A DNA stretch of 61,578 nucleotides, taken from positions 1 through 61,578 of the IMG/VR virus record IMGVR_UViG_3300043444_000209. One strand, written 5' to 3'. Numbering within the stretch: the first letter of the stretch is position 1; each line of letters opens with the position of its first letter. This document shows, in pieces, positions 57,001-60,000 of this stretch. The stretch comes from a virus (lineage: Duplodnaviria; Caudoviricetes). The position numbers are program-made.

Positions 57001-60000
57001 GCTGCATTTTCACTATATCAAGGCACCCCAACACGGTGGGCAGCAGCACGGATTCGTCGTATTTATGCAACAGTTCTAGCACCTCGTCGACCAGAGCCTG
57101 TGCGATGTTGGCGTCGTACGTCATTTAATCTCCTTGACCTCTGCATCCAGTGTAACGGGTGTGAGAGTCTGCTGGTTACTGAGGCTTATGCTCTGGCCAC
57201 CACCCAAGTCGATGGAAATGCTAAACCCCGGCCCAGTGTCCTTGACTTTTTCCTCCTTCGGCTCAAGCCCTGCGGCTTTGATGAGCGTCTTGAGGACTTC
57301 GTGCTTTTGGCTGAGGCTGGCTTCACCCGAGGCTGCAGTGACGTACACCTGATCGAGCAACTCTCCGGCCATCCACGCTGCCTTGGCCTTGAAGGTGACG
57401 CCGTTTTTCTCGTATTCAGAGCGCTTGACCTGAACTTGCAGCTGAAACCACGGCTGAGCCGCCAGCTCTTGGTACTGCTCTATGGATAGGCCGTGCCTAG
57501 CCGCAACAATGAGTTCGTCTTCCAAACCCAAGGCCACAGAAGCCACCATCTCCTCGCTGATCTGAGGAAACGACACGGTTTTTGGCTTGTACTCCAGTGG
57601 GGAGTCGTCCACATCAGTGCCATCAAGCGACATTTTCTTGCTCCGTAGCTTGTTTTTGAGCTTTTTCGACCGCTTGCAGGTACTTTTCCATAGCAATTCT
57701 GGCCATTTCAGCCGAAGAAACGCCCTTTTTAGCGGCCAAAATTTTGTATTTTTCGATCAATTCCGGGGGCAAAAACAGGTTCCAGCGCTTCATTTTTGGT
57801 CCTTTTGAGGTGTGTATACACACATTCTACAGAGATTTTTTGTGTTTTGTGCGGTTTTTATGGGCTTTGCGGTGCATAGTGTAAGAATTTAGTACTACTA
57901 CGTGTGTATACACACCTTTTTATTTTTTGCTCATGATGATTGAGCGAGTCGTAGGCAGGGGCGGGCGGGGTGGGGCCCTTGGGGGGCCTGTGGGGTGGGG
58001 TGGGTAGCGGGCAGACCATTAGTGGAAGGGTTGACTACTGAGTAGCGGCCTGACCAGTAGTGAAGCGGTAATCGTGCCGCTTGCCCCGACAAGTGCAAGT
58101 GCCTTGTGCCGGTATCAATCGCATGGTGTAAACCATCGCGGTCATGCTGGGCAACACATGGTAGGTGCATGGGGAATCGACCCTTAAAAATTCGCAATCG
58201 GGTGTCAGTATGGTGCAGTGACAGTGCGCCTGAAATCGGCCTGACCTAAGTCATATCGGGTAAGTATTGACTGACTAGCATCCGGGCACACAGTTGCACG
58301 GCCAAGCCATAACGCTGACTGGGGCGTTAGTACGGCACTGCGGTATTCGCATGGGGTAAGAGTCCCCACGGGTAGGGCCACAAGGGAAAGACCTTGTGCG
58401 GGCAAAGTGTTCGCCGAATCGAAGGGACACGGGGGTATCAACGACACCCGGCACAGAAAGTCGCAAGACCCACGCAAGTGGGCTTCAGTGTGAAGTCAAC
58501 CGACTACACATCCAAGCTCATTCAACCAAGGAAATATTATGTCCAATCAAATCACTGTCCAAGACCTGCAACTGTCCATCTACTCTAACGCCGCCAAGGG
58601 TGGTGCAGTCACGATGAACGCCAAGGGTAAATCCGGCTCGTTTGCTCGTGCCATTGCGTTTGCAAGCCGTGAAGCCCGTCACAATCTGTCAGCAGGCATG
58701 ATGCTCGACCAACTGCGTAACGGCCAGTATCGCCCTCTCGTCACTGACATTCTGTCATGCGGCCTGATTCCCAAAGCCAACTTGGATTGGGTGTCAGCGT
58801 CCATCCCTGCAACTGGCCCAATCAACAAAGATACATTGGTCGGTCTGTGCAAGCAAGTCAAGACTGTGTACGACAACAAGAAAACCAAGGCTGGCGAGCC
58901 TGTCCAACTCAAGGGTGAGAAAGCATTTGTGTTCGGCTTCATCCAAGCCATCGTTGCCGATGTTGCAGAAACCACAATCGACGCCTAATGTGTGTATACA
59001 CACCTTGCAATTAGACAATTATCCAAGGGTGGTTTTACCTTGGATAATTAGGTTTTCCTTTAAAATCAATGGGTTAGGCGTGCAATTAGACAATTAGACA
59101 ATTAGACAAGATTTTAGGATGCACATGACGATGCGTGTGTTGCTCGTGCCAAGAGCCTCGGGCCGCGCACAACATCACAACACCCTAAAATTCCTGACCC
59201 CCTTTTTCACACTTGGATAATTCGAGTAGGGTAAACCCTAATATCCCCTCGCAATCCCAGTATCCATGCGGCTTCCAGCCCACCCCCTAATTATCCAACC
59301 CCTAAACTTTTGGATAATTACCCCCCAACTTTTGTCTAATTACCATGTGTGTATACACACATCAGGAGCATGACATGAACAACTACCATTTCATCCAACC
59401 CTCAAAAGGTGTGTATACACACAACGATGACGACGACGAGCCGTTCGTCTTTGAGGCCAGCATGGACACAAATCCACTAGACATGGACGACCCCGAGCTT
59501 GCATACCGCGAGTACTTGGCCGAACGCTTCAGCAGATAACCTACACATACACACCTTTTATGTGTGTATACACACCAAGGAACTGACATGACGAACACCG
59601 AACCTACTGTGTCCATACATATAAGAGATGTGTATGGCAAACCCACTGCGTACCCTGCCTGTCCAACTGCAGAGAAATTCGCAGCACTCACTGGCACCAA
59701 GACGCTCACATCCCGAGACCTCAAGACAATCCAGAGCCTTGGATACACACTTGTAGTAATACAACGGGAGCTGGCATGACTAAAGAAGACTGGATTATCT
59801 TGCGCCTACTGAAGGCCTCATGCAGAACACAAGCCGTGACCAACCCAGACTATGTAAACTCAATCATGTACCTACTCAAGAAGTACGGCTCAAAAGGCTT
59901 GGGCAAATACATCGCCCAGTTACATGGGAAGGGCGCGACATGAATGGCGGTAAGACTGGCGCACCACCGGGGCTACTGCAAGATGACAGCCGCAAGCTAC

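Follow-up and report, generated by a model that had tools for sequence, protein, structure and literature searches.

A conserved, pseudoknotted RNA directly ahead of the first early gene in uncultivated freshwater phages

What is encoded in the long gene-free region that lies ahead of the first early gene in the phage contig IMGVR_UViG_3300043444_000209? The contig was taken from IMG/VR, and the whole of its 61,578 bp, which we refer to as the window, represents a complete, circularly permuted phage genome in which an ATPase gene is divided between both ends. An earlier note had singled out positions 58029-58501 as a candidate structured non-coding RNA. This segment falls within a 715-nt gap without genes (57824-58538). 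Comparison with relatives shows that an RNA fold is under selection here, and that the selected + strand fold and the start of translation of one gene family lie on one physically continuous stretch. We lean, if only by a little, towards the view that the stretch is an uncatalogued, conserved and highly structured RNA serving as an early-operon leader that acts in cis.

Relatives were collected in two ways. Searches of IMG/VR anchored in the flanking proteins gave 7 + 50 loci, from which 33 distinct upstream sequences were obtained, the window's own included (individual relatives are designated by L numbers). Scans for a conserved loop motif, which do not depend on the proteins, found true members in 21 of 120 IMG/VR hits, 21 of 25 metagenome hits, and one of the two hits in a genome collection. 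Removal of duplicates left 41 distinct sequences of the 3' core. The one retained from the collection of bacterial genomes, a contig of 1131 bp belonging to a metagenome-assembled genome, is probably a mis-binned phage fragment. The RNA sequence is present in freshwater metagenomes of 13 studies, and the element occurs as a single copy in the genome. Homologs in which both halves were found (n = 16) are 449-616 nt long.

Run on the raw MAFFT alignment of 19 sequences, RNAalifold retained just eight pairs because the subfamilies were misaligned. The helices were therefore specified by hand from the reference row and then pair-counted, using slid partners and 500 shuffles as controls. For 24 pairs in five helices the 19 sequences were paired in 88.2% of the cells, against 27-43% when the partners were slid; 20 of the 24 pairs had changed on both sides, and none of the 500 shuffles reached any of the measures. 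When the count was extended to 41 sequences and 36 pairs (H1, H2, S1, S2, H3, H4, and H5; Table 1), pairing was 84.5% (28.1-49.7% slid), and both-side changes were seen in 29 of the 36 pairs, amounting to 250 cells as compared to 84 in the shuffles. Here the observed value was reached by none of the 500 shuffles on four measures and by eight on the number of pair types. The counts for H1 rest on the 30 alignment rows that have letters at this helix. The elements of the 5' half were paired at 79.9% in 18 sequences (36-47% slid). Two further helices of this half gave 56.5% and 76.5% in the MAFFT alignment of the same number of sequences, and these values are low because the subfamilies are out of register. 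The slid control partly favors the hand-set helices, since they were derived from the same sequences; the comparison with shuffles and the large number of different pair types are free of this dependence. Within the window's own class (four sequences) RNAalifold predicts 124 pairs, 25 of them with compensatory change. The covariation is illustrated by a constant loop of the GGAAAGA type that is carried by wholly different stems, CACAAGG/CCUUGUG in the window and GUAGCG/CGCUAC, CUGACA/UGUCAG, CCACUG/CAGUGG, or CACCAUU/AUGGUC elsewhere.

It is this covariation among relatives, and not the folding energy, that takes the structure beyond chance. The + strand of the window folds at -181 kcal/mol with a z-score of -2.45, and the - strand has a z-score of -2.04. 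None of 100 shuffles was as good as the + strand, and three were as good as the - strand. Taken by itself, the folding energy is modest. Among relatives the z-score of the minimum free energy is -3.88 in L024 and -3.74 in L003, but only -0.19 in L034.

As to the strand, the comparison of homologs shows that it is the + strand that folds, as had been proposed. This strand is the more stable in all 16 full-length homologs, by 24.5 kcal/mol on average. The loops are of the GNRA type on the + strand, and the changes found in the stems are often exchanges between U-A and U-G.

The earlier note had described the region as packed with stems, and a check of the sequence found every one of them where it had been placed: ACTACTG 58034-40 with CAGTAGT 58055-61, AAGCGGTA-ATCG-TGCCGCTT 58063-82, ATGGT-GTAA-ACCAT 58123-36, CACAAGG/CCTTGTG 58379-98, GTC-GCAA-GAC 58460-69, and CCCAC-GCAA-GTGGG 58469-82. 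The relatives support the hairpin at 58063 and the stems ATGGT/ACCAT, TAACGC/GCGTTA, TGGGG/CCCCA, CACAAGG/CCTTGTG, and CCCAC/GTGGG. The GTC-GCAA-GAC stem is not supported, as it clashes with the covarying helix CGAC 58442-45 / GTCG 58460-63, and the stem GTCAGTAT 58204-11 / GTATTGAC 58264-71 is present with two G-U pairs but is poorly kept in L004. It had also been suggested that the RNA is bounded by a closing helix, GGTTGACT 58029-36 / AGTCAACC 58494-501. This helix competes with the local hairpins at 58029-50 and 58489-510, and its letters barely vary among the relatives that have both arms. It does not delimit the conserved unit, which probably begins near 57950, thus including a G-rich tract, and extends to about 58510. 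Nor is the whole of the ~470 nt one unit: wide conservation is limited to ~160 nt of the 3' part and a few 5' elements, the rest of the 5' half and the middle being a mosaic.

The 3' core is a succession of short helices. Its S1 (GGGC 58400-03 with GCC 58413-15) and S2 (GUGUUC 58407-12 with GGACAC 58425-30) are interleaved and therefore form an H-type pseudoknot; as read by eye from the alignments, the window's variant of it is common to L002, L004, L053, and L054. H3 encloses a conserved, purine-rich loop of 14 nt, which reads ACCCGGCACAGAAA in the window and ACCAAGAACAGCAA in most relatives. In ~30 of the 41 members H4 is a G/C hairpin with a tail containing U behind it, which reads UUUUCAUUGUG in the best cases; L004 has no H4. 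Since H5, which lies downstream of H4, still covaries, transcripts must run past H4. In L024 a segment of the 5' half is complementary to the stretch holding the 5' arm of H3 over ~17 consecutive pairs (17/17 by reading). This long-range helix of ~17 bp, which competes with H3, is only found in the subgroup of L024 (1500-1981, - strand), L031, and L123, and its analogue in the window, CGGGUGUC/GACACCCG, has two mismatches in L004 as judged by eye. Cognate 5'-half segments paired with the H3 region at lower energy than non-cognate ones in 14 of 32 cases, with a mean difference of -0.1 kcal/mol.

The 5' half is modular. Ha is replaced by an unrelated hairpin module in other relatives, while in L021, as read from the alignment, its pairs are preserved by changes of U-G to U-A and of C-G to U-G. 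The domain 2 module is common only to the window, L002, L004, and L005, and its apex, ATGGT-GUAA-ACCAT, has compensatory changes in the apical helix in four sequences. The single-stranded UUAAAAAUU is unchanged in all 18 aligned sequences, and the hairpin Hd that follows it is 92.1% paired in these, with changes that are mainly U-A/U-G exchanges. In the middle domain the TAACGC helix displays compensatory changes in five pairs (RNAalifold, four sequences).

Table 1. Positions in the window of the elements of the RNA and of the neighboring genes and control sites.
Feature	Position	Strand	Basis or remark
Large terminase, TerL	55199-56704		Leftward operon
Ribbon-helix-helix (CopG-like) repressor gene	57623..57823	-	Pfam RHH_5, E 2.9e-06; homologs adjoin the gap in relatives
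Perfect 14-bp palindrome GTGTGTATACACAC	57810..57823	.	Presumed operator, at start of repressor gene
Second copy of the palindrome, then T-run	57902..57915	.	Adjoins presumed early promoter/start site on its upstream side
G-rich tract	57951..58016	+	65% G, 9 runs of >=3 G; immediately 5' of folded part
Ha, 5' hairpin GGUUG-A-CUAC / GUAG-CGGCC	58029..58050	+	Alignments
Hb, hairpin with invariant AUCG loop	58063..58082	+	93.5% of cells paired; 5/7 pairs changed on both sides (18 sequences)
Domain 2, long irregular arm closed by CCCC/GGGG	58084..58174	+	RNAalifold, 4 sequences
Invariant single-stranded UUAAAAAUU (58184-92), then small hairpin Hd	58184..58203	+	Alignment
Variable middle domain including TAACGC/GCGTTA	58204..58345	+	Common to window, L002, and L004 only
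H1, GGGG-UAAGAGU-CCCC, conserved loop YAAGARY	58353..58367	+	90% paired; 4/5 pairs changed on both sides
H2, CACAAGG-GAAAGA-CCUUGUG, conserved loop GGAAAGA	58379..58398	+	82.8% paired; 5/5 counted pairs changed on both sides
H-type pseudoknot (S1, S2)	58400..58430	+	S1 96-97% and S2 86.8% paired in relatives, both with compensatory changes
H3, CGAC 58442-45 / GUCG 58460-63	58442..58463	+	88.7% paired; 5/5 pairs changed on both sides
H4, G/C-rich hairpin CCCAC-GCAA-GUGGG, then CUUCAGUGUG	58469..58482	+	84% paired; weak-terminator-like
H5, last hairpin UGUGAAGUC-AACC-GACUACACA	58489..58510	+	73.4% paired; 6/8 pairs changed on both sides
Ribosome-binding site AAGGAAA (58528-34) and first early gene (ATG 58539)	58528..58988	+	149 aa

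That the gap is free of genes was correct, in that it contains short and unconserved open reading frames only. In 58029-58501 the spurious ones found by an open reading frame scan reach 73 aa, and a protein-coding reading of this segment finds no conserved open frame among the relatives. Length differences in the 41-sequence alignment of the RNA region are not multiples of three, and the variation in the stems of the 41 core sequences is compensatory rather than frame-preserving.

Some 30 nt separate the end of the 3' core from the ribosome site of the first early gene. A profile search found a member of this gene's family, here called e149, directly 3' of the RNA in 36 of the 41 members; 15 of these 36 had contributed to the search profile. 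In three of the five misses less than 200 nt of sequence was left, and the other two (L181 and L201) have a different gene. The e149 family consists of two homologous subfamilies, which are ~28% identical and share the motif NAKGKxGxxAR. None of its 408 relatives is named or contains a Pfam domain. The window's 149-aa protein itself belongs to no Pfam or PHROG family, its AlphaFold2 (AF2) model is all-helical with a pLDDT of 73, and a Foldseek search against the PDB gave no match at E<=0.001. The order repressor, RNA, and e149 gene persists even where the e149 protein is just 43-57% identical.

In the nine loci where both flanking genes are present, the window included, the distance from the repressor gene to the early gene is 498-873 nt, and in the other loci the first sizeable rightward open reading frame likewise starts several hundred bases from the repressor gene. 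BLASTN and profile searches showed that the gap is a mosaic among relatives. Many relatives have the operator, the G-rich tract, and the first hairpins in common, while the 3' core is whole in 19 of the 33 protein-anchored sequences, reduced to its last hairpins in three, and lacking in 11.

On the other side of the gap, the repressor gene is the first of a leftward operon that reaches the large terminase gene, and is divergent from the RNA. TerL is less than 40% identical to that of any isolated phage, and for this reason no host can be assigned. The genome contains six exact copies of GTGTGTATACACAC, all of them inside 57810-59575, where 0.23 would be expected by chance; they are probably operators of the neighboring ribbon-helix-helix repressor. 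Several copies immediately precede ribosome sites of small early genes. The palindrome at 57902-57915 is aligned in relatives and is terminator-like on the + strand according to the scan. Inspection by eye found no boxA-like signal after the start region. Downstream of the palindrome, the G-rich tract contains the most G-rich 60-nt window of the genome, and 27 of 33 relatives retain a window with at least 55% G. The tract could form G-quadruplexes in the RNA or in the non-template DNA strand. Contigs of 11 of the 50 relatives (L014, L015, L022, L025, L039, L042, L045, L047, L048, L049, and L051) stop 69-280 nt past the start of the repressor gene, at the palindrome or at the G-rich tract, and two of these contigs are near-complete 57-kb genomes. 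Either the assembly broke off in very G-rich DNA, or these contigs stop at the true end of the virion DNA.

The next gene-free gap (58989-59345) sits between two operator palindromes (58990 and 59347). It contains the 10-mer TTGGATAATT/AATTATCCAA in both orientations at six sites and the 10-mer AATTAGACAA/TTGTCTAATT at ~5 sites, three of which are in tandem at 59081-59109. Contigs of one run covering 59016-59100 differ by a single 8-nt CAATTAGA unit. As RNA this gap has a folding z-score of -5.33. Its repeats look like protein-binding iterons, and the gap may therefore be a replication origin. Elsewhere, among the structural genes, the - strand encodes a 2233-aa protein with a DarB-like C-terminal part (20822-27523), whose N-terminal 1470 residues had no match in anything searched, and a radical-SAM protein (39365-40789).

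Some sequences from RNA-type libraries fall on the RNA. A riverine metatranscriptome (X18) contributed contigs at 58042-58187 and at 58220-58370, and two wastewater libraries labeled 'RNA-Seq cDNA', flagged as probably DNA, have contigs on 57977-58520. One relative's RNA-library contig reaches 27 nt further 5' and passes through the G tract, which is probably inside the transcript. These contigs are a weak hint only, because they are short and carry neither strand nor end information. Libraries X18, X19, and X20 gave no contig on 57600-57950 or 58570-58970, and the DNA run X2 gave none on 57600-59100; missing cover proves nothing, and it was not used as evidence.

The earlier note had been unable to match the RNA to a transfer-messenger RNA (tmRNA), RNase P RNA, or intron, and the searches agree with this. 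No model of Rfam 15 matched the window at its gathering score, a set that includes GOLLD, ROOL, OLE, HEARO, raiA, RNase P, tmRNA, 6S, group I/II introns, the C4 antisense RNA, riboswitches, and self-cleaving ribozymes. Searching 57700-58700 at E<=10 gave a sole match, a human long non-coding RNA model falling by chance on the G/C tract, and the RNA of 10 divergent relatives gave no match at E<=1. ARAGORN found no tRNA or tmRNA genes in the window. Isolated phages gave no match to 761 nt of the window, to 506 nt of a relative, or to the e149 protein, and full-text searches of the literature found no description of this RNA. A catalog of 10,006 unnamed candidate RNAs from IMG/VR has been published (Fremin et al., 2023; PMC10690425), and these may include a piece of the present RNA; in the readable tables of that study, which exclude the alignments, neither the loop motif nor six sample numbers from relatives were found. 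The RNA is filed here as a new family among the large structured phage RNAs and early-operon leaders, with no named family matched. In the distant relative L072 positions 1986-2092 (+) match the Rfam family Atu_At1, a small RNA of Rhizobiales, at 75 bits (gathering score 60). This match lies on the repressor-gene side of the gap and on the strand opposite to the folded RNA, and there is none in the window.

How might such an RNA act? The earlier note had it as a free non-coding RNA. It is a structured RNA, but it may be a cis-acting leader and not a free RNA, because it is joined to the ribosome site of one gene family. Given where it lies, it probably governs or accompanies the opening stage of the infection. 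Rightward transcription from an early promoter region flanked by repressor operators would produce an untranslated leader of ~57950-58510, whose cis action would then bear on how the first early gene is entered. The core, located 5 nt upstream of the terminator-like H4, might set how much transcription passes into this gene; alternatively, it might set the stability and translatability of the message that reaches it. A G-rich and tightly folded leader would, from what is established for Rho, be expected to resist both Rho and nucleases, and a stable leader fragment could accumulate as a by-product or a second product.

Several observations weigh against this cis-acting leader. With up to 616 nt it would be far above the known cis regulators. 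As a terminator H4 can only be weak, since the terminator scan did not call it and 10 of the 41 members have in its place a longer hairpin that lacks the U tail. Mutually exclusive, covarying alternative pairings were not found family-wide. The promoter scan found no sigma-70-like promoter on the + strand upstream of the RNA. The core is missing or incomplete in 14 of the 33 close relatives, and gaps without it are equally long. As to the RNA itself, the energy z-scores are modest or absent, one 5' helix is paired at 56.5% only, the count of G-U against A-C in the 3' core (18 vs. 11) is not decisive for the strand, and two of the three RNA-type libraries carry the probable-DNA flag.

The main rival explanation, which we hold possible and distinctly less probable than the leader, takes GOLLD, ROOL, or OLE as its pattern: an ornate RNA that stands alone, acts in trans, and is released at H4 by termination or processing. 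The ornate RNA would then be the very first transcript of the infection, working in trans or in a particle with the first early protein, a proposal that we put forward tentatively. It might act on the host or together with a phage protein, for instance by displaying its repeated purine-rich loops as a scaffold or decoy, by forming an RNA-protein particle with what the following gene encodes, or by catalysis as a ribozyme. Under this proposal it might also be a self-assembling RNA, or a scaffold or multivalent decoy that engages a host protein of RNA binding or defense. The size of 449-616 nt, the pseudoknot, and the GNRA loops are as expected for such an RNA, purine-rich motifs recur in the conserved loops UAAGAGU, GGAAAGA, and ACCAAGAACAGCAA, a 3' end could be formed at the hairpin and tail present in ~30 of 41 members, and the RNA-library contigs do fall on the RNA. 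The exchange of modules among close relatives also fits a host-phage arms race, which the fast swapping would then reflect. However, the RNA is fused to the ribosome site of an e149-family gene in 36 of 41 members, the scan found no strong terminator between RNA and gene, the covariation of H5 implies that transcripts run through H4, and the product of the next gene has no recognizable fold in the AF2 model or the Foldseek search.

The remaining explanations are improbable. One of them regards the region as a replication element, where transcription of the G tract leads to an R-loop or G-quadruplex and the folded RNA is a pre-primer like RNA II of ColE1. RNA II is of about the same length, and the tract, 65% G on the non-template strand just past the presumed start, is kept in 27 of 33 relatives; but it occupies the 5' rather than the 3' end, the conserved part borders on a ribosome site, and the iteron-like repeats of 58989-59345 make a better origin candidate. 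It is even harder to believe in a feature acting at the level of DNA next to the terminase genes, where, for example, the hairpins would bind proteins as an array or the site would serve packaging or mark an end of the genome. The terminase operon does adjoin the region and the contigs of 11 of 50 relatives end at the palindrome or G tract, but these ends fall upstream of the folded part. Moreover, a DNA feature would not account for the difference between the strands, which is seen in 16 of 16 homologs and averages 24.5 kcal/mol, or for covarying interleaved helices, and U-A/U-G exchanges correspond to A-C mismatches on the opposite strand. Least credible of all is that the structure arose by chance in a spacer without function, or that the region is decayed coding sequence. 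A z-score of just -2.45 and the overlapping spurious reading frames of up to 73 aa could be taken in its favor, while the covariation exceeds both controls, the indels among relatives are not multiples of three, and the element is as well conserved as the flanking proteins.

Few bacterial or phage RNA classes above ~400 nt with complex conserved folds are, to our knowledge, described, and each of them has opened new RNA biology. The RNA presented here sits at a defined place that lends itself to interpretation, as the presumed first RNA from the early promoter of widespread, uncultivated freshwater podophages. It has unusually clean comparative support, a covarying pseudoknot included, and is linked to a conserved early protein without named relatives. 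It also offers a metagenome marker for this group of phages. If it acts in cis it would be among the largest leader regulators known, and if it acts in trans it would constitute a new class of ornate RNA.

By having a multi-helix fold of more than 400 nt that covaries, the RNA belongs with the large ornate phage RNAs in kind, though not by homology. Like GOLLD and ROOL, to which the earlier note had compared it, it is a phage-carried non-coding RNA of several hundred nt with many helices, pseudoknots, and GNRA loops. GOLLD also has a conserved 3' part and a variable 5' part, as is the case here. The likeness is one of style and goes no further, as no Rfam 15 sequence or structure match was found. 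This RNA differs in being joined to the ribosome site of a downstream gene (36 of 41 members) and in having no tRNA genes nearby, and host group and habitat differ too.

The layout of the core and H4 is reminiscent of attenuators and of the 'tug-of-war' riboswitch design where a stable fold just upstream of the terminator is reported to suppress termination (bioRxiv 10.64898/2026.06.17.733018). With transcriptional riboswitches it shares the order of a conserved core with invariant loop or junction letters, a G/C hairpin with a U-containing tail, and then the gene. However, this RNA is several times larger than known aptamers, its terminator-like H4 is weak, and the U tail is missing in 10 of 41 members.

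The leaders of other phage early operons also bear comparison. The early-operon leader of T7 is several hundred nt long, runs from the early promoters to the first early gene, and contains the RNase III site R0.3. Both are podophage leaders with an RNA structure just before the first early gene, which in T7 affects the fate of the message. While T7 has a single processing hairpin, this RNA has a conserved, multi-helix, pseudoknotted core and no helix long enough for an obvious RNase III site. The CI RNA of P4 and the c4 RNA of P1 and P7 (Rfam C4) are ~70-80 nt and work by short antisense pairing. They too belong to untranslated leaders of phage early operons, where the operon's own RNA decides transcription, but the RNA described here neither matches Rfam C4 nor has a covarying long-range pairing that we could find. 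The pseudoknot in the leader of the T4 gene 32 mRNA is an autogenous translational operator. The present RNA is far larger and is followed by a gene whose protein has no recognizable fold, but in both cases a pseudoknotted leader lies immediately upstream of one early gene, which suggests that the RNA might be controlled by the product of that gene.

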